The translations under genes were made by a program, and so were the position numbers. Positions 5,611 to 36,809 of a DNA stretch of 64,000 bases are shown piece by piece. The notes under the pieces are model-generated. The model had not been told where the DNA came from and made no database searches. It saw nothing but the letters and a program-made list of their open reading frames with translations. Each line of letters begins with the position of its first letter. Positions within the stretch are counted from its first letter, which is position 1. Source of the DNA: a phage. The DNA is taken from the sequence record PZ026127.1. One strand, 5' to 3'.

Positions 5611-7421
5611 TATGCAATCCTCATCCAGCGATGAACAGTTAAGTATGGTGGTAGAGTATTAACCGGGATAGGAGTGGTTCCTTGAGCCTTATTAATACTG
5701 GCTTTATCTTCACGATATTTTGTATAAGCTGGTCCTTGTGAATCAGGGTCAACTAAACATCCACCTACAAAAATAGGGCCATCGTTATCAGCAATAAGGA
5801 CTTTATCATCGGTATTAAGTTCAGGGATATTCTCATATTTCAAATTAGCCACATGAGCGCCACCAGTACCGCCAGCAGTTGACTGTGGAATACCAGCAGA
5901 ATCCAGATCGTTGTTATTTGCATTAAACAAAGAACTAGCGTCAGGAGACCAACCTACCAAGAACACATCAGATAAACGCTTCCATGAACCAAAGCCCATA
6001 TAAGTTTTAGGGTTATTAGGGTTCACCGTATTCTCATAGATGGTTCCTATTGGATAAACCAAATCAAAAAACGTTGCTGCTGTATCTATTGTAATATTGG
6101 ACGCGGCGACCGGTTCAACGTTAGGTGCAAAAGGATTGTCTACATCAGTGATACGAACTTGACCTGTTATATCAATCGATGGGCCTTTAGAAATATAGAT
6201 GTTGTTGGTATAATCCAAAATCTCATCAATTTCCATGGTAGTACCGATATCATTATTGTACCAAATTACCGTAAGAATATCGCCATGTTCAAAGCTACGT
6301 CCAAATTCAATAGATTCAATCTTATCTTCAGGAGTCAAATTAAAAATATAATCAGATTTAGATTGGGTCCATTGACCGCCTGCATTAAAACACTCGGTAG
6401 CAGTACGACCATCAGCGCCTTCACAATAAAACGAAGGAAGTCCGGCCGTACCAGCTTGATGAAGTAATGTGCTATTCAGCATAACTTGACAAGCATTTGG
6501 GTTGATAGGACTGTTAACAGAAATATTCAAATCTGCTGCCGATATAACATGTGAAGTATTCAAATCTCCGACGAAAGAAGAACCAGGAACAGAAACATTT
6601 TTAGTCAATTCTGAACTTTGGATTGTTATATCACGACGGTTATAAGAACTGCGCCATTGAGCAAGCCCGTCATTATACGATTTGATAATAACAGTATCAC
6701 CTGCTTCACAAGGATATTTTAAACGGATGTCCTTACCATTCAAGGCAACCAATTCACCTGGTTGAGCACCTGGGGAACCGAACTCTGCGGTAGCCGCATC
6801 AAAAATATCATCAATACCATAGAACAAATTGTTACCACGTTGTGAAACGCTTAAACTTGCTACGTTATAAGAAAGACCTGGGAAAACATCTAGAAAATCT
6901 GTTTGACCTTCGGTGGCAATAAACTGCTTGGTTGCTACAGTAGCAAGGTCGTTATTTGGAATACGGTTTACTTGCTTATTTTCAACATATTCCCATCGTC
7001 CTGGGGCACAATAAACTAATTCAAGGTCCGAGAAGTTGCGAGCAATTTCTACTTGAGTAGCTGAACCCTTAATGGTATCACCCGTGGCAGGGATTAGGGT
7101 TACAGGGTTAGCTTGCCATGAGGAATACACATCACGTACACGGATAACAAAGTTATATTCTTCAGGAGAGCCTTTAGGAAGCTGAACGTTAATACGCCCA
7201 CCTTGAGTATTAAGGGTATAGCTATGACCCATTACAGCGTTCAACAAAGCACCATCTGCAGTAGAATGCTGTTTCCAAGCGCCTGCTGCATGAGGGTTGT
7301 TGCCATCACCTAATTGGTAATAAAGCTCATTGAAGTTGTTATTAATTTTAAGACCACCTGCACGCAGGTAATCACCGGACCCGTCATCAACAGCGGAACC
7401 TACTTTTAAGTCTTGTTTCAT
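5610..7421 (-). CDS. 10: baseplate wedge protein gp10
   Basis: 603 aa (T4 gp10 about 602); synteny 9-10-11. Confidence 0.8.
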   Translation of the reverse strand: MKQDLKVGSAVDDGSGDYLRAGGLKINNNFNELYYQLGDGNNPHAAGAWKQHSTADGALLNAVMGHSYTLNTQGGRINVQLPKGSPEEYNFVIRVRDVYSSWQANPVTLIPATGDTIKGSATQVEIARNFSDLELVYCAPGRWEYVENKQVNRIPNNDLATVATKQFIATEGQTDFLDVFPGLSYNVASLSVSQRGNNLFYGIDDIFDAATAEFGSPGAQPGELVALNGKDIRLKYPCEAGDTVIIKSYNDGLAQWRSSYNRRDITIQSSELTKNVSVPGSSFVGDLNTSHVISAADLNISVNSPINPNACQVMLNSTLLHQAGTAGLPSFYCEGADGRTATECFNAGGQWTQSKSDYIFNLTPEDKIESIEFGRSFEHGDILTVIWYNNDIGTTMEIDEILDYTNNIYISKGPSIDITGQVRITDVDNPFAPNVEPVAASNITIDTAATFFDLVYPIGTIYENTVNPNNPKTYMGFGSWKRLSDVFLVGWSPDASSLFNANNNDLDSAGIPQSTAGGTGGAHVANLKYENIPELNTDDKVLIADNDGPIFVGGCLVDPDSQGPAYTKYREDKASINKAQGTTPIPVNTLPPYLTVHRWMRIA

Positions 7422-21050: not shown

Positions 21051-21380
21051 ATGAAAACATATAACGAATTTGTACAAACTGAAGCAATTAATGAAGTAGC
21101 CATCCCTAAACCGGCTAAAGCTGGCGGTACTGAGTACTACCATATTGAAACATCTTTTGATGCAGCTTCAGATATGGCTAACGGGCTTGGTGATTTCATC
21201 CGTCAAGCTAAGTCCGACCTGGCTAAATTTACAAAGACCCTTGATAAAGAGCAAAAGAAACCTTTCTCGGATCTGGCTAAAAAACTGGACGCGTTAAATG
21301 ACAAGGTCTTTAAAGAAGTTTACCACGGTATGATTGGTCTTACCCGTGAATTCAATGCTGAAGTTAAAAAACTTCCCTAA
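21051..21380 (+). CDS. internal head protein with capsid-targeting sequence (IPI-locus)
   Basis: 109 aa; N-term MKTYNEFVQTEAINE has T4 internal-protein CTS pattern MKTYxEF + (L/I)xE cleavage motif; sits next to 57B like T4 ipI. Confidence 0.7.
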   Translation: MKTYNEFVQTEAINEVAIPKPAKAGGTEYYHIETSFDAASDMANGLGDFIRQAKSDLAKFTKTLDKEQKKPFSDLAKKLDALNDKVFKEVYHGMIGLTREFNAEVKKLP

Positions 21381-22916: not shown

Positions 22917-23582
22917 ATGTTCCATTACACTTATAAAATAACAAACAAAATTAATAATAAAATCTATATAGGTGCCCATTCAACCGAAAATTTGAATGAT
23001 GCATATTTTGGTTCCGGTAAACTCTTGAAAAGGGCCCAGGCCAAATACGGTATAGAAAATTTCTCTAAAGAAATATTAGAGTTCTTTGACGATAAAATCT
23101 CTATGTTTGAGTCAGAAAAGAATATTGTGACTGAAGAGTTTTTAAAGCGCCCCGATGTTTATAATTTGAAATTAGGCGGTGAAGGTGGTTGGGACCATTT
23201 AAACACCGAAGAATATTTAGATAAAAAGAAAGAAGCTTCCTTAAAAGGAGTTGCCGCTTTTAAAACCAGATTTGAGAACGACCCAGACCTTAAAGAAAAA
23301 TATCGTAAAATGGGTTCAGAAAGGTTTAAACAACTTTGGGATAATCCTAAGTATAGAGAGAAATTTTCAAATACTAAATCTTTCTTGGGTAAGACCCATT
23401 CAGATGAAACCAAAAATAAAATGAAAGAATCTCACGCCAGAAATAAACACCAACAAGGTGAAAATAATTCCGGATATGGAAAAATGTGGATTCATTCTTT
23501 AGAAGAAAAAGTTTCTAAACGTATTAACAAAACGGATATTATTCCTGAAGGTTGGAATAAAGGCCGTAAAATAAAATTTTGA
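22917..23582 (+). CDS. segB: GIY-YIG homing endonuclease (Seg-like) in tRNA cluster
   Basis: 221 aa; N-term YTYKITNKINNKIYIGAHS (GIY-x10-YIG variant), C-terminal NUMOD-like GKTHSDETKNKMKESH; lies between two tRNA genes like T4 segB. Confidence 0.75.
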   Translation: MFHYTYKITNKINNKIYIGAHSTENLNDAYFGSGKLLKRAQAKYGIENFSKEILEFFDDKISMFESEKNIVTEEFLKRPDVYNLKLGGEGGWDHLNTEEYLDKKKEASLKGVAAFKTRFENDPDLKEKYRKMGSERFKQLWDNPKYREKFSNTKSFLGKTHSDETKNKMKESHARNKHQQGENNSGYGKMWIHSLEEKVSKRINKTDIIPEGWNKGRKIKF

Positions 23583-23587
23583 ATTAC

Positions 23588-23662
23588 GTCCCGCTGGTGT
23601 AATGGATAGCATACGATCCTTCTAAGTTTGCGGTCCTGGTTCGATCCCAGGGCGGGATACCA
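23588..23662 (+). tRNA. tRNA-Arg (probable anticodon UCU), CCA encoded
   Basis: hand fold: acceptor GTCCCGC/GCGGGAT (one G-U), T-arm CCTGG-TTCGATC-CCAGG, anticodon loop CTTCTAA, 3' ACCA; anticodon stem has one mismatch. Confidence 0.7.
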
Positions 23663-23901
23663 AATGAAGACTATTATATAGTCAAGCCGTCGTATGAAGA
23701 CTGATTACCAGCATTCACCGGCGCAACAAACAAGAAACCGGGTCGCTACCGGTAAGTCGTCGGACTGATGTTCCCTGTTTAAGGACTGACATTAATAAAT
23801 CTTTACGATTTGTTGATGTCCCCTTATATCACAGCAGAAACGGCGCACCGAATTATCGATTCGAGGAAATATCTTTGCCGTAAGCCGAGTAGCGTTTTTG
23901 A

Positions 23902-23993
23902 CGGAACGTTCGGATATGGTCGAGATATGGCCTTTTAAAAATATTGAGTGGCGTCAACTACTTAATAACCGGGTTCGAATCCCGGCGTTTCGT
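23902..23993 (+). ncRNA. tRNA-like element / candidate small stable RNA
   Basis: 7-bp acceptor-like pairing CGGAACG/CGTTTCG enclosing a canonical T-arm CCGGG-TTCGAAT-CCCGG; D and anticodon arms could not be folded confidently. Confidence 0.3.
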
Positions 23994-24044
23994 ACAAACA
24001 CTTGCCTTAGCAGGTGGAACCCCGACAAGGTTGCCGCAAGGCAT

Positions 24045-24073
24045 AGCCCCTTCCGAAAGGTTGGGGCTTTTTG
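24045..24073 (+). terminator. intrinsic terminator
   Basis: AGCCCC...GGGGCU hairpin followed by UUUUUGG. Confidence 0.7.
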
Positions 24074-24113
24074 GCATAATAAATAGATAAGTTAATTAAC
24101 TTAGGAAATAACA

Positions 24114-24578
24114 ATGAAAACTTACAATGAATTTTTGACCGAACAATCTAGTTCAGATGTAAAAGCCGCCGCGATTGCAGCAATTCAAGCAGGTAAATAT
24201 TCTTACAAAGACGCCTCTGATGAAGAACGTTTCCGTTTTATTAAAGATTTTAAAGCCGAAGGTTTTACTAATGCTAATACTGTTAGCCGAGTTTTTAAAA
24301 GCCTAGCTGCATCAGGTGAATTGTTCCAGAAAGCCACAGGTAAAGCACCTGCGTCAAAAGCGGACCCTAAAGCCGCTCAAGAAAAAAATATCGCCAAAGG
24401 AATTATTTCTAAGTATGAAGCAATTCTTAAAGAGCTTTTAGTAATCAAAACAGAAGGCCAGAAACTGGCACGAGCACATAGCTTCAAAGATAATCCGCAT
24501 GCTCACGACTTAGAGTATGTTGAAGATATTCAGAAAATCATCAAAGACCGTATCTGGTCTGCTAAACAAATCAAATAA
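24114..24578 (+). CDS. internal head protein with capsid-targeting sequence
   Basis: 154 aa; N-term MKTYNEFLTE (CTS + LTE cleavage motif); strong RBS AGGAAATAACAATG. Confidence 0.7.
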   Translation: MKTYNEFLTEQSSSDVKAAAIAAIQAGKYSYKDASDEERFRFIKDFKAEGFTNANTVSRVFKSLAASGELFQKATGKAPASKADPKAAQEKNIAKGIISKYEAILKELLVIKTEGQKLARAHSFKDNPHAHDLEYVEDIQKIIKDRIWSAKQIK

Positions 24579-31821: not shown

Positions 31822-32263
31822 GAAAGCTAAGGAATTATCGGCAGGTATTTTGTTCATGACCGTTGATAAAGAACTAGTTATGGGTCGTGTAACAGGCTCT
31901 CGTAATCCAGAGAATATGCGTCATAAATGGGACATTCCTAAGGGTCATGTCGAACCAGGCGAAGAGCCTATTCAAGCGGCAATGCGCGAAACCGAAGAAG
32001 AGATTGGATTCACAGCATACGATCCTGCGTTCCTGAAAGACCTAGGTGAGTTCAAATATTCAAGCAATAAGAATCTACATCTGTTCTTATATACAGTGCC
32101 TGTGGAACACGAGCAGTTCAAGGATTGCAAATGTACGGCTTACCATACGTTCCCTGATGGTCGTACTATTCCTGAATTCGATGCGTTCGCTTTGATTAAA
32201 CGTCCGCAATGGGAATATGTCATGGGCCAGTCGATGTTTAAGGTTTTAGATTCACTCTTTTGA
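31814..32263 (+). CDS. nudE: Nudix hydrolase (NudE.1-like)
   Basis: 149 aa; Nudix box GHVEPGEEPIQAAMRETEEEIG (GX5EX7REUXEEXGU); directly upstream of lysozyme e as in T4. Confidence 0.85.
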   Translation: MSKKAKELSAGILFMTVDKELVMGRVTGSRNPENMRHKWDIPKGHVEPGEEPIQAAMRETEEEIGFTAYDPAFLKDLGEFKYSSNKNLHLFLYTVPVEHEQFKDCKCTAYHTFPDGRTIPEFDAFALIKRPQWEYVMGQSMFKVLDSLF

Positions 32264-32293
32264 TATAAATACCTCCTATACTCAGGAGGTATT
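32264..32293 (+). promoter_or_regulatory. late promoter TATAAATA embedded in SD-sequestering hairpin upstream of e
   Basis: TATAAATA 32264-32271; 10-bp stem 32268-32277 / 32284-32293 pairs AGGAGG SD; same layout as the known T4 lysozyme translational control. Confidence 0.8.
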
Positions 32294-32782
32294 ATGGATA
32301 TTTTTGATATGTTACGTCAAGACGAAGGTCTTGATTTAAATCTTTATAAAGACACTGAAGGTTATTGGACTATTGGTATTGGCCAATTGATTACTAAGAA
32401 CCCATCTAAAGACGTTGCTCGCGCTGAACTTGATAAGCTTATGGGTCGAGTTTGTAATGGTCGTATTACTATGGCTGAAGCCGAACAACTCTTTAACCGG
32501 TCGGTTGAAAATGCTCGTAGAGCTATTCTGCGTAATCCTAAATTGAAACCTGTTTATGATGTATTGGACGAAGTTCGTCGTTGTGCTTTAATTAACATGG
32601 TCTTCCAAATGGGTGAAGCAGGTGTAGCAGGGTTCACTAACTCTTTACGTATGCTCCAACAGAAACGTTGGGACGATGCGGCAGTTAACCTGGCTCAATC
32701 CCGTTGGTATAAACAAACTCCAAATCGTGCTAAGCGCGTGATTTCAACATTTAAAACCGGCACATGGGCTGCTTATAGATAA
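32294..32782 (+). CDS. e: endolysin (T4 lysozyme e)
   Basis: 162 aa; [26 protein letters not shown]...[31 protein letters not shown] matches T4 lysozyme; catalytic E11, D20, T26 present. Confidence 0.95.
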
Positions 32783-32787
32783 AAGCA

Positions 32788-32818
32788 GTTTACATCTCCT
32801 AGAATTGTGATAGTATAT
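32788..32818 (+). promoter_or_regulatory. T4-type early promoter cassette
   Basis: AAAGCAGTTTACATCTCCT... with -10 TAGTAT about 16 bp downstream. Confidence 0.55.
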
Positions 32819-32869
32819 CTACAGTTACTTGAACAGACCAATTAAAATATTTACCTTTAAGGAACCCGT

Positions 32870-33466
32870 ATGAAAACGTATAAAGAATTTATCGCCGAAG
32901 CTTCTGTAGGAAAGGTCCAAGGCATTAATAAAGATGAGTGGACTTACAAAGGAAACGGCGTTGACAACCCAGGAAACGGTTTTGACGCTAAAACAGCTCC
33001 TATTGAACGGTATTTAGCTACAAAGGCTTCCGACTTTAAAGCTTTCGCCTGGGAAGGACTTCGCTGGCGTAACGACCTAAATATTGAAGCTGATGGACTT
33101 AAATTTGCCCATATCCAAGATGTTGTTGCTAGTAACTTGGACGCAGCTTTTGTTAAAGCTGACGGTGACCTTCGTCGCTGGAATTTAAAACTGTTCTCTA
33201 AACAGAAAGGTCCTGTATTTGTACCTAAAGCAGGTAAATGGACTATTGATAATAAATTGGCTAAGGCGGTCAACTTCGCCGGTCTTGAATTTGCCAAGCA
33301 TAAATCCGCATGGAAAGGTCTTGATGCAATGACTTTCCGTAAAGAATTTGCCGATGTTATGGTTAAAGGCGGCTTTAAGGCAGAGATAGATACCTCTAAA
33401 GGTACGTTTAAAGACGCTAATATTCAGTACGCTTACGCCGTTGCTAATGCAGCCCGTGGTAATTAA
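32870..33466 (+). CDS. ipIII: internal head protein IPIII-like with capsid-targeting sequence
   Basis: 198 aa (T4 IPIII about 194); N-term MKTYKEFIAEA with IAE cleavage motif; between e and denV. Confidence 0.7.
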   Translation: MKTYKEFIAEASVGKVQGINKDEWTYKGNGVDNPGNGFDAKTAPIERYLATKASDFKAFAWEGLRWRNDLNIEADGLKFAHIQDVVASNLDAAFVKADGDLRRWNLKLFSKQKGPVFVPKAGKWTIDNKLAKAVNFAGLEFAKHKSAWKGLDAMTFRKEFADVMVKGGFKAEIDTSKGTFKDANIQYAYAVANAARGN

Positions 33467-33491
33467 TAAAGCTGATACTTGATAAAAAGCA

Positions 33492-33542
33492 GTTTACATC
33501 TCCTGTAGTCATGATACTATAGACCTATCAACTACAGGAGAT
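33492..33542 (+). promoter_or_regulatory. early promoter cassette with SD-complementary spacer
   Basis: GTTTAC 33492, -10 TACTAT 33515; 11-nt ATCTCCTGTAG (33498-33508) is exact reverse complement of CTACAGGAGAT (33532-33542) containing the denV SD. Confidence 0.7.
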
Positions 33543-33548
33543 TAAAAA

Positions 33549-33956
33549 ATGACTCGTATCAACCTTACCTTAGTATCTGAATTGGCTGACCAACACTTAA
33601 TGGCTGAATACCGTGAACTCCCACGGATTTTTGGTGCGGTTCGCGAACGTATTGCCAAAGGGCAAGGCTTCTCTGATATCCCTAAAGACTTCCGCCTTGG
33701 TGCAGGGCACGTCAAGTTCTTTTATGACAAAATTGGATTTTTGTTCTTGCGACAAAATGCAATAATTGAGGAACTTCTGAAGCGTGGTTACCAGATTCAA
33801 AATACCCATGTAGACGTAGCGGATATTCCATTACGGCTCATGAACGATTTCACCCCATCCGAAGCTGATATAGCTTTAAGCCAAGCTCGTCTGGACGAAA
33901 AAATTGCACAGCGTCCTACCTGGTACAAACATTACGGCAAGGCTATTTACGCTTAA
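33549..33956 (+). CDS. denV: endonuclease V, pyrimidine-dimer DNA glycosylase
   Basis: 135 aa; [26 protein letters not shown]...LGAGHV.FFYDK...[24 protein letters not shown] matches T4 DenV. Confidence 0.95.
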
Positions 33957-33998
33957 TTAAATCCGTGATAGAATATTTCTATCAACTTAAGGAATAAT

Positions 33999-34358
33999 AT
34001 GAAAACTTACCAACAATTTATTACTGAATCTACTCAGCGCATTAACGAAGCTATGTCTCCTGAACAATTGGCTAAGGCTAAAGAAGGGCTGAACCCATCT
34101 GAAGTTTTTAAAGTTACAGGTAAAGACTTTGCTTCCATGGCCACTAACCAAAGTCTGGCTAAAGAACTTAAATCTAAATCTAACTTCATTCATGCTACAT
34201 GGAATGGTGATTCTCTTACTTCAATAAGCGTGTACAATAAAAAAGGTCTCCTTAAGAGCTCTTATGGCGCTGATGCCATCCGTGTTTCTAAATCAGATTG
34301 GCATAAAAACACTACTAAAGCAGAAAAACCTCATAACCCAGCCCTTGACCATCTTTAA
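33999..34358 (+). CDS. internal head protein with capsid-targeting sequence
   Basis: 119 aa; N-term MKTYQQFITES; RBS AAGGAATAATATG. Confidence 0.65.
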   Translation: MKTYQQFITESTQRINEAMSPEQLAKAKEGLNPSEVFKVTGKDFASMATNQSLAKELKSKSNFIHATWNGDSLTSISVYNKKGLLKSSYGADAIRVSKSDWHKNTTKAEKPHNPALDHL

Positions 34359-34366
34359 GGAATAAT

Positions 34367-34624
34367 ATGAAAACTTATCAAGAATTTATTACAGAATCCA
34401 CTTTAGTTTCTAAACGTTGGAATATGATTGTAAACGTTAAACCTTCCGGCACTGAAGTTTCTATGGCCGACCCTAATGATGACGAACTTGAGCACGCTTT
34501 TAGCTCTAAAGAAACTGACGAGAAAGTGGTTAAGCAACTGGTTGCTGATGCAGACCAACTTCGTAAAGTAGCAGATGTTGTTAAGCTGTTTACTAAGAAA
34601 GGTTTTAAACACGAAGAACGTTAA
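34367..34624 (+). CDS. internal head protein with capsid-targeting sequence
   Basis: 85 aa; N-term MKTYQEFITES; RBS AAGGAATAATATG identical to the preceding gene. Confidence 0.65.
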   Translation: MKTYQEFITESTLVSKRWNMIVNVKPSGTEVSMADPNDDELEHAFSSKETDEKVVKQLVADADQLRKVADVVKLFTKKGFKHEER

Positions 34625-34773
34625 TTAGCATTTTAAATGGGAGCAACCTGGACCTCACAATTCTGTGAGGGACTCCCGCCAACCTGTAATAAGGTCGAGC
34701 CCAAGTGCGGTAATGGGTAAATGCAGAAAGGGACGAATTAATGTGCCAAGGAACGGCCCTCAAAGGAAATACT

Positions 34774-35301
34774 ATGAAATTTTTAACTCCCATTTATCTA
34801 ACCTTAATGCACGCCTTCGCTGAACGCGCCATTGAACGTTTAGACTCAGACCAATATACCTGGTATGAACCTGCTTCAAGAATGCAAGAGTTTGGTACTC
34901 TTCGACTTGATGGCGGACGCCAAACAGGTAAAACAAGTGCCCTTGCTCAGTTCGCCGCTGATTGGGTTTCCAAGGGTAATGATGTGATTGTTATGTCGAG
35001 TTCTTCGCATCGCTCGCGAGAAATTTGTAATGTAATAAAACAGGTTTCTAAGGCACACCCACATCTCCAAGTCGAAGGTCCTGGTTTTGTTGTCTATGAT
35101 ACTGTGCGCAGTTTCCTTGATGAAGACAATTTCCATAAGTATCGTGGACTATCTGTTACTCGATTATTGATTATTATCGAAGAGCCAATGCGCCTTCCAG
35201 CGATGGATAAGTTCTATGAAGCTTACCAGGTAATGATTAATAAATTTATGTGCCAAGGCGACAAGCCTTTGCCTCTGTTCTTTGTGATAGGAATGCAATG
35301 A
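34774..35301 (+). CDS. small P-loop NTPase-like protein
   Basis: 175 aa from ATG 34774; Walker A-like GGRQTGKTS and Walker B-like LLIIIEE. Confidence 0.55.
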   Translation: MKFLTPIYLTLMHAFAERAIERLDSDQYTWYEPASRMQEFGTLRLDGGRQTGKTSALAQFAADWVSKGNDVIVMSSSSHRSREICNVIKQVSKAHPHLQVEGPGFVVYDTVRSFLDEDNFHKYRGLSVTRLLIIIEEPMRLPAMDKFYEAYQVMINKFMCQGDKPLPLFFVIGMQ

Positions 35302-35594
35302 TGACTGATGAAGAACTTTTTGAGTTCTGTTATTTCTCACGTAAGGTTCGAAGAGAGGACCTTACTGCAAATTTCGAATATGCTTATTTCTACCCATTGG
35401 AATATGTATTCATGACAGGGCCCTTTAAGGGCCCTCGTTTTAGATGTCATGCCCCAAGCATCCGATTAATGAAACAGGTTCCTTACTTCACCCTCGAGTT
35501 CATCTCAGGGCCTTGTAAGGGTATTATTACTCGCAGTCTCTTAACTTATGACCAAGAGATTCATATGATTTCTGATTGGAAAAAATATGTCTAA
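35298..35594 (+). CDS. hypothetical protein
   Basis: 98 aa, ATG overlapping upstream stop (ATGATGA). Confidence 0.5.
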   Translation: MMTDEELFEFCYFSRKVRREDLTANFEYAYFYPLEYVFMTGPFKGPRFRCHAPSIRLMKQVPYFTLEFISGPCKGIITRSLLTYDQEIHMISDWKKYV

Positions 35595-36080: not shown

Positions 36081-36289
36081 TGAAAATTGAAAGTTTACAA
36101 GATTTCCAGCGTATCATCGGTGAAGCCTGTACTGGCTACCACAAATACTTGCTTGACGACCAAATGGCTTGTCTCGAAGAAGGTGAAGTACAGTATGCAG
36201 CCCAACGCCTTGAACAAGTGAAAGAGTTTTACCCTGTACTGGTAGAAATTTGTTCAGCTGCTGGAAAACTTACCCCATTCCAAGAATAA
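36080..36289 (+). CDS. hypothetical protein
   Basis: 69 aa from ATG 36080 (ORF-track start 36038 overlaps upstream gene). Confidence 0.5.
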   Translation: MKIESLQDFQRIIGEACTGYHKYLLDDQMACLEEGEVQYAAQRLEQVKEFYPVLVEICSAAGKLTPFQE

Positions 36290-36293
36290 AGCA

Positions 36294-36344
36294 GTTTACA
36301 TCTCCTGTAGACGTGGTACTATAGACCTATCAACTACAGGAGAT
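36294..36344 (+). promoter_or_regulatory. early promoter cassette with SD-complementary spacer
   Basis: GTTTAC 36294, -10 TACTAT 36317; ATCTCCTGTAG (36300-36310) complementary to CTACAGGAGAT (36334-36344) containing the regB SD. Confidence 0.7.
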
Positions 36345-36350
36345 TACAAA

Positions 36351-36809
36351 ATGTCAGAAATTAATTCAGAAGTATTCATCCGCCGCAATAAATTACGTCG
36401 TCAGTTCGAAACCGAATTCCGTGAACTGAATACGTCCATCAAAAAAGCCGCCATCAAGAGCGGAGTCCCAGCCTTCTTTATTAAGTACTCTAATCACTTG
36501 TTGGACCGTGCTATCCAACGTGAAATCGACGAAAAATACGTTTTTGCTTTATTCAAGCAACTCCATAACCATGTTAAAGAAATTCATGAATTTTTAATCC
36601 AGGAACCTCTACCTGATGTAGAATCCGAAATTGTCCCTGGTAAAGTGTATCGTCCATTGCGTCTCGAAATTACCGATAAAACCTTATGGCTAGGTATGAC
36701 AGTAGACCGTAAACATCCTGATAAAGGATATTCCCTTAAATGTCGTATGGCATTTGTTAACTCTAAACGTTTAGAAGGTAAAACCAGCACGAAAGTAATC
36801 TATCTTTAA
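36351..36809 (+). CDS. regB: endoribonuclease RegB
   Basis: 152 aa; ...EVFIRRNKLRR.FE.EFR.....I..........YS.HLLDRAIQREIDE.YVF.LF... matches recalled T4 RegB (153 aa). Confidence 0.9.
   Translation: MSEINSEVFIRRNKLRRQFETEFRELNTSIKKAAIKSGVPAFFIKYSNHLLDRAIQREIDEKYVFALFKQLHNHVKEIHEFLIQEPLPDVESEIVPGKVYRPLRLEITDKTLWLGMTVDRKHPDKGYSLKCRMAFVNSKRLEGKTSTKVIYL

Follow-up and report, generated by a model that had tools for sequence, protein, structure and literature searches.

How does one short protein leader come to stand in front of unrelated proteins, and what do these proteins do for the phage that carries them? The question is raised by a 64,000-nt stretch of the phage record PZ026127.1 (hereafter the window, whose positions serve as coordinates), in which three open reading frames (ORFs) around denV, the gene for endonuclease V, begin with almost the same ten codons. 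Building on sequence features, homologies, combinatorial cassettes and breakpoint positions that we observed, we consider it probable that this locus is an internal protein (IP) array of a Dhakavirus, made by recombination from cassettes that carry a capsid-targeting sequence (CTS). The first gene, ORF1, encodes IPIII, and ORF2 and ORF3 would encode injected anti-defence payloads.

Over positions 32200-35400, the window shares 97-98% identity with the Dhakavirus phages ABTNLS3 (Salmonella), PSD9 (Shigella) and WG01 (Escherichia). We accordingly assign it to Dhakavirus, the JS98/WG01 group of T4-type phages. The gene order is nudE - e - ORF1 - denV - ORF2 - ORF3 - vs.8 ... regB, and the syntenic order in T4 is nudE - e - ipIII - ipII - denV - vs.8 ... 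regB. All three ORFs occupy the IP positions of the arrangement nudE-e-(IPs)-denV-(IPs)-vs.8-...-regB that is shared with T4, JS98, WG01 and RB69. By synteny, the locus is the hypervariable e-to-vs.8 IP array, whose T4 equivalent is e-ipIII-ipII-denV-vs.8.

A first-pass annotation of this DNA had described three CTS-bearing ORFs around denV, and its coordinates, lengths and N-termini are all exact: ORF1 (32870-33466, 198 amino acids, MKTYKEFIAEA), ORF2 (33999-34358, 119 amino acids, MKTYQQFITES) and ORF3 (34367-34624, 85 amino acids, MKTYQEFITES), all on the plus strand. On the same strand, denV (33549-33956; Pfam PF03013 Pyr_excise, E=3e-15; phrog_1183, E=4e-52) lies between ORF1 and ORF2, inside the cassette array.

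The N-terminus common to the three ORFs is MKTY(K/Q)(E/Q)FI(A/T)E, with substitutions confined to positions 5, 6 and 9. According to the summary in PMC9026906 of truncation and suppressor experiments on IPIII (Mullaney & Black 1996), the first 10 residues are enough for packaging, positions 4 and 7 acting in targeting and positions 8 and 10 in processing by gp21; the same account states that the ten CTS residues are enough to package foreign proteins such as GFP. Both targeting determinants, Tyr4 and Phe7 (MKTY..F), are present in all three ORFs. So are the processing determinants Ile/Leu8 and Glu10, as an (L/I)-x-E site that ends at residue 10 and reads IAE in ORF1 and ITE in ORF2 and ORF3. 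ORF2 has a second I-x-E site (INE) at residue 17. A degenerate 30-nt leader pattern matched the three ORF starts with 0 mismatches and one further site, at 24114, with 2, and gave no match in 100 dinucleotide shuffles of the window. These features support the identification of the shared N-terminus as the T4 CTS.

The same 5' end would be expected if ORF2 and/or ORF3 had simply inherited a translation-initiation module, with a strong ribosome-binding site (RBS) and favourable first codons, and their proteins acted only in the cell that produces them. Such an origin would sit well with the lack of a late promoter directly upstream and with the outcome of our literature search, which found no proteomic report for the two families, whose relatives in WG01, ABTNLS3 and E33 are annotated 'hypothetical protein'. 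However, Y4, F7, I8 and E10 are unchanged in the divergent orthologues P0003 and P0004 (ORF2 family) and P0005 (ORF3 family), even though the payload of P0003 is only 36% identical to that of ORF2 and the payload of P0005 only 56% identical to that of ORF3. This invariance argues for selection on the tag itself. As the ten residues also package foreign proteins, and as the ORF2 and ORF3 genes are confined to known IP loci, we regard a mere initiation module as very improbable.

According to its sequence, ORF1 is a plain, already known IPIII. Along its full length it shares 87% identity with T4 IPIII (E=6e-128), it matches phrog_5341 'internal virion protein' (E=7e-115), and its counterparts in JS98 and QL01 are annotated ipIII. 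Like T4 ipIII (PHROG 5341 / Pfam PF26861), it directly follows gene e behind the same promoter cassette, and its CTS differs from that of T4 by one substitution, Q5K. Unlike the T4 protein, it carries an insertion of six residues close to the N-terminus of its mature form. The predicted mature form has 188 residues (20.7 kDa, isoelectric point (pI) 9.5). The window also differs from T4 in lacking ipII after ORF1, and other phages differ from both in having IPIII after denV or no IPIII at all.

In contrast to ORF1, neither ORF2 nor ORF3 belongs to PHROG 5341, and neither is a member of the IPII family. The alignment of ORF2 with T4 IPII is limited to residues 1-11, which is the leader, and that of ORF3 covers residues 1-25 only, the leader and a few residues more. 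A true IPII orthologue (100 amino acids) is found in ABTNLS3 and none in the window. The expectation that the mature regions would not be close homologs of T4 IPII or IPIII thus fails for ORF1 and holds for ORF2 and ORF3. Scanned against Pfam and NCBIfam, none of the three proteins fell into any family, and PHROGs returned only IPIII for ORF1 and, for ORF2, phrog_3966 of 'unknown function'.

The predicted mature form of ORF2 has 109 residues (12.0 kDa, pI 9.5). Its mature region is near-identical in 13 Dhakavirus records and about 32% identical in 77 Mosigvirus records, RB69ORF123c among them, and relatives are confined to Dhakavirus and Mosigvirus. In a collection of 5.8 billion proteins, one ORF2 cluster was found, and a profile built from ORF2 and RB69 found only three 90%-identity clusters. 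For ORF3, the predicted mature form has 75 residues (8.5 kDa, pI 6.1), and its payload is known from seven phage records, with an identity of 99% or more in every case. One cluster represents it in the same collection, and an exhaustive HMMER search of 1.84 billion representatives gave two. The second of these, P0005, 56% identical to ORF3, bears the same leader and, like ORF3, is the last cassette ahead of vs.8, on a T4-like contig of metagenomic origin.

Because homologue clusters are so few, the alignments for both proteins are too shallow for good structure prediction. The AlphaFold (AF2) model of ORF2, from a shallow alignment, is of moderate confidence (pLDDT 78.5, pTM 0.66) and predicts two N-terminal helices packed against a small sheet. 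A fold search with this model gave no meaningful match in the PDB, and in BFVD it retrieved its own family only, plus weak matches to uncharacterised T4-like proteins of about 160 amino acids. The ORF3 model is unreliable (pLDDT 55) and too poor for a fold search.

At the DNA level, the leader is part of a 48-nt module made of the RBS and the start of the gene (TAAGGA..ATG plus 10 leader codons), which is present in three copies in the window, at 32858-32905, 33987-34034 and 34355-34402, all on the plus strand. The second copy is the reference for this repeat family (D2) and has the left recombination junction at its 3' end; the first is 67% and the third 92% identical to it. The first-pass annotation had described the RBS and leader of ORF2 and ORF3 as identical. 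This is correct for a stretch of 23 nt (TTAAGGAATAATATGAAAACTTA), but over the 48 nt the two differ by the margin just given and residue 6 is Q in one and E in the other.

This likeness had suggested, in the same annotation, a tandem duplication followed by divergence of the payload. On such a model a single IP gene would have been duplicated locally, and the payloads would have diverged beyond recognition while the leader was kept. The two genes are indeed adjacent, 8 nt apart, with the RBS of ORF3 overlapping the stop codon of ORF2 (cttTAAGGAATAATATG), and since all leaders are homologous a leader-bearing unit must have been duplicated at some point. However, pairwise alignment of the mature regions reported no ORF2-ORF3 pair at an E cut-off of 100. 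Among the mature regions of all five leader-bearing ORFs of the window there was no significant pairwise similarity, the best match having E=0.06 in a five-sequence database. The predicted structures differ as well, ORF2 being modelled with an alpha/beta sheet and ORF3 as mainly helical, the ORF3 model being poor.

The leaders themselves point to other partners. The ORF3 leader is 97.8% identical to that of the 99-amino-acid internal head protein of JS98, and so closer to it than to the ORF2 leader. The ORF3 RBS is AAGGCTTAAT in WG01, ABTNLS3 and E33 and AAGGAATAAT in the window, so that the perfect identity of the ORF2 and ORF3 RBS is a local feature of the window genome. This homogenisation is probably recent and was most likely caused by short-patch conversion between leaders.

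A wider census showed the same independence of neighbours. The conserved element upstream of vs.8, described below, served as the anchor for gathering loci from public genomes of phages and from IMG/VR contigs. Upstream of this element, 81 leader-bearing ORFs form 13 payload families (given here by F numbers or by the names of known IPs), which occur in many orders; about 30 T4-like loci carry any of them. ORF2 is F6 and ORF3 is F7. The window reads e, IPIII, denV, F6, F7, and WG01 reads e, F3, IPIII, denV, F6, F7; ABTNLS3 is as WG01 with IPII added after IPIII, and E33 is as WG01 without IPIII. JS98 has e, IPIII, F3, denV, F2, VR5 has e, IPIII, F2, denV, and RB69 has F5, denV, F4, F6. Locus L009, on a metagenomic T4-like contig, has e, F9, F10, denV, IPIII, F13, F7. 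IPIII is thus found either before or after denV. Each of the two families also exists without its present partner, F6 being preceded by F4 in RB69 and by F1 in locus L041, and F7 by F13 in L009. Given these arrangements, the unrelated payloads and the breakpoint described next, we consider a local tandem duplication of ORF2 and ORF3 quite unlikely.

In pairwise DNA comparison, the window is homologous to QL01 and JS98 through denV and as far as 34028, the final base of codon 10 of ORF2; after a break, the homology starts again at 34679. In VR5 and T4, where denV is followed by no cassette, homology is regained at 34639. At the other end of the array, WG01, QL01, ABTNLS3 and E33 have a CTS-bearing ORF of family F3 (132 amino acids) that overlaps the end of gene e; the window lacks it (32767-32787, compared with 2068-2474 of locus L002 from WG01). 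The e-ipIII junction of the window is JS98-like and its denV is ABTNLS3-like (408 nt and not 417 nt), which makes the locus a mosaic of several sequenced relatives. Its exact arrangement is present in none of the records listed. The unrelated payloads, the combinatorial orders and the break at codon 10 together support an exchange of cassettes by homologous recombination in the leaders and flanking repeats.

Among these repeats is a 66-nt early-promoter cassette (TTTACA-N16-TAGTAT), three copies of which stand within 3.6 kb at gene boundaries of the variable region. The first lies upstream of ipIII (32782-32847, plus strand, promoter-like site 32789-32816) and the second, which is the reference copy of this direct-repeat family (D1), upstream of denV (33486-33551, plus strand, promoter-like site 33493-33520). 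The third, 94% identical to the second, lies upstream of regB (36288-36353). T4 has the same cassettes before ipIII, ipII and denV. Copies 2 and 3 contain an 11-bp inverted repeat (ATCTCCTGTAG / CTACAGGAGAT), which in copy 2 covers the denV RBS; such a structure would hide the downstream Shine-Dalgarno sequence in read-through transcripts.

In its repeated promoter unit and in the 11-bp stem-loop of two copies, the array resembles the promoter-early stem-loops (PeSL) described earlier (Arbiol 2010, PMC2839356; Comeau 2014, PMC4122927). The promoter consensus of the T4/PST PeSL pair is TTTACW-N17-TAYWAT (PMC4122927), and the three cassettes of the window, at boundaries of variable genes, fit it with TTTACA-N16-TAGTAT or TACTAT, the spacing being that given by the scanner. 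Unlike the PeSL system, the IP genes bear an additional, partly coding repeat (RBS plus CTS codons), and it is in this module, not in a PeSL, that the left breakpoint of the array was observed.

Polymorphic IP loci of T-even phages are known from Repoila et al. 1994 (as cited in PMC3012670), and IP differences between PST and T4 have been described (PMC4122927). The window is like these loci in having diverse payloads behind a conserved CTS that differ between close relatives. The earlier work had its focus on the ipI locus and on Tequatrovirus, whereas our analysis concerns the e-denV-vs.8 locus of Dhakavirus and maps the breakpoints to leader codon 10 and to a conserved downstream element.

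This element forms the right-hand junction, or anchor, of the cassette exchanges. ORF3 and the start codon of vs.8 (34774) are separated by roughly 150 nt that are 89% identical to T4, compared with 72-76% for the flanking genes. Within them lies the element, conserved, apparently non-coding and about 120 nt long (34639-34759, plus strand). It starts with a hairpin, P1 (GGGAG 34639-34643 / CTCCC 34673-34677), followed by an invariant core (34678-34718, with CCAACCTGTAATAAGGTCGAGCCCAAGTGCGGTAATGGG at 34680-34717) and by a second conserved block, ATGTGCCAAGGAAYGGCCC (34741-34759), all on the plus strand. The core follows the pattern CC(A/T)ACCTGTAA(N)AAGGTCGAGC-N5-6-GCGGTAA(N)GG, and both core and second block hardly vary among T4, RB69, JS98, VR5 and metagenomic relatives.

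P1 is supported by covariation. A hairpin at a fixed distance 5' of the core was found in 33 of 38 distinct sequences, where shuffles gave 11.2 as the expected number, and it uses 11 different helix sequences, such as GGGAG/CTCCC, AAAGG/CCTTT, GAATG/CATTC and GGAAC/GTTCC. Although the T4 annotation of vs.8 runs across the element, the indels in it have lengths not divisible by three, and for this reason the stretch does not resemble a coding sequence. Rfam gave no match at the gathering score or at E<=10; hammerhead- and twister-like motifs had been rejected by eye, in agreement with this null result. In contigs of phages that are not T4-like, the same core precedes tRNA arrays by 300-550 nt. 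The 18-nt core also had 33 matches in bacterial and archaeal genomes, none with the extended motif, so these are chance matches. On this basis the element looks like an undescribed, phage-specific structured RNA. It may act as a regulator in the 5' UTR of vs.8, or serve as a signal for processing or for antitermination; a literature search on 'vs.8' returned nothing useful.

We propose the following model for the array. An IP gene would be a cassette in which the conserved module of about 48 nt (a TAAGGA-type RBS, the ATG and the ten codons for MKTYxxFIxE) is followed by an unrelated payload. Through Tyr4 and Phe7 of the CTS the protein would bind to the scaffolding core inside the prohead, the prohead protease gp21 would cut after Glu10 (I-x-E), and the mature payload would remain in the head and enter the host with the DNA. 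ORF2 (mature form 12 kDa, basic) and ORF3 (8.5 kDa, near-neutral) represent two further payload families that are uncharacterised. The array itself would have been assembled by homologous recombination in the leader modules, in the early-promoter cassettes and in the conserved element upstream of vs.8, and not from a recent tandem duplication.

From the intact tags we infer, on good grounds, that ORF2 and ORF3 are packaged, cleaved after Glu10 and injected, and we extend this to a role against host defence. By analogy with characterised IPs, they would most likely counteract the first-line defences of the host when the phage DNA enters. IPI* inhibits GmrS/GmrD (PMC3012670) and IPII inhibits the fused GmrSD/BrxU (bioRxiv 10.1101/2023.04.06.535777). 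IPIII is required for T4 plating on ECOR17, and since it works from a plasmid even without the CTS, it acts in the cytoplasm (PMC9391042). ORF2 and ORF3 share with T4 IPI* and IPII the size class of 8-12 kDa for the mature form, the CTS, the predicted I-x-E site and the location in an IP array; from this likeness we expect them to act in the same way, entering together with the DNA and disabling a defence enzyme.

Packaged proteins could also act in the head itself, by neutralising the charge of the DNA, condensing it or helping its ejection, and have nothing to do with defence. About 300 copies of each basic IP are present per head and bind DNA at low salt (PMC9026906), IP lysines contact DNA phosphates (PMC3012670), and mature ORF2, with its pI of 9.5, would be suited to such a task. 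Mature ORF3, with a pI of 6.1, would not. Moreover, the presence and identity of the cassettes vary freely among near-identical phages, E33 even lacking IPIII, which fits accessory, host-specific roles better than a required structural one, and all three T4 IPs with a known phenotype counter host defence. We therefore hold a purely structural function of ORF2 and ORF3 to be unlikely, and retain injected anti-defence proteins as the preferred reading.

Several points weigh against this preferred reading. None of the three ORFs is immediately preceded by a canonical late promoter (TATAAATA), the closest one being at 32264, before gene e; T4 ipII and ipIII likewise have none directly upstream. 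Queries with T4 gp21 and gp22 gave no tblastn match in the window, so the processing machinery is deduced from relatives: Dhakavirus gp21 is 88% identical to T4 gp21, and as Dhakavirus genomes encode gp21, the gp21 and gp22 genes are expected outside the window. Our literature search found no proteomic report for the ORF2 and ORF3 families, and searches on the virion proteomics of JS98-like phages returned nothing useful. The near-neutral pI of mature ORF3 is unlike the classically basic IPs. As neither payload has a recognisable domain or fold, any specific target is a guess. Finally, an entire ancestral cassette may have been duplicated very long ago.

A more specific version of our proposal can be put forward only tentatively. 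According to it, ORF2 and ORF3 would be two unrecognised injected anti-defence proteins directed against different first-line defences, and the array would be kept in flux by recombination anchored in the CTS codons on one side and, on the other, in an undescribed, phage-specific structured RNA upstream of vs.8. The fold of ORF2 would then be one without a PDB representative. The targets would belong to the defences of Escherichia, Shigella or Salmonella and might include variants of modification-dependent nucleases of the GmrSD/BrxU type.

Two further leader-bearing ORFs, absent from the first-pass annotation, are present in the window, at 21051-21380 (MKTYNEFVQTEA) and 24114-24578 (MKTYNEFLTEQ). 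The former (109 amino acids) directly follows 57A/57B, which is the position of ipI in T4, and matches phrog_7857 'internal virion protein' (E=2.5e-25); its I-x-E site is displaced to residue 15. The latter (154 amino acids) lies downstream of tRNA-Arg and belongs to phrog_2280, of unknown function. The window would accordingly hold five putative internal protein genes in two or three loci.

The approximately 440 nt between tRNA-Arg (23588-23662) and the latter ORF, at 23663-24100, contain no convincing ORF and are relatively G+C-rich, with a tRNA T-arm-like segment (ccgggttcgaatcccgg) around 23970. Rfam gave no match there at the gathering score. This region may correspond to the stable RNAs C and D of T4. 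Between tRNA-Met and tRNA-Arg, an ORF of 221 amino acids (22917-23582, N-terminus MFHYTYKITNKINNKIYIGAHS) may, by its resemblance, be a seg-like homing endonuclease of the GIY-YIG type that was inserted among the tRNA genes. Between vs.8 and regB in L009 (contig SRR10097265_5069), a 69-amino-acid ORF (6464-6673) has a weak precomputed Pfam match to Acb2_Tad1_hairpin, a family of anti-CBASS/anti-Thoeris sponges, which suggests that other anti-defence genes also gather around the IP array.

The idea of the CTS as a portable packaging tag, put forward in the first-pass annotation, is supported in that unrelated payloads stand behind one conserved leader. That a conserved CTS is combined with diverse payloads of fast turnover is already explicitly published, and nothing conceptual here goes beyond the T-even literature. 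Our additions are the assignment to the IP class of ORF2 and ORF3, which were already in GenBank as hypothetical proteins but unrecognised as IPs, the census of 13 families and the breakpoint at codon 10. Census and breakpoint give a concrete picture of a tag that doubles as a recombination site.

For the biology of these phages, IP cassettes are a ready catalogue of proteins that are delivered before the phage expresses its own genes. The IPs whose phenotype is known (IPI, IPII and IPIII) all counter host defence, and the CTS flags ORF2 and ORF3 as two specific candidates for anti-restriction and anti-defence screens. Such cassettes may help to explain differences in host range among near-identical therapeutic Dhakavirus phages.

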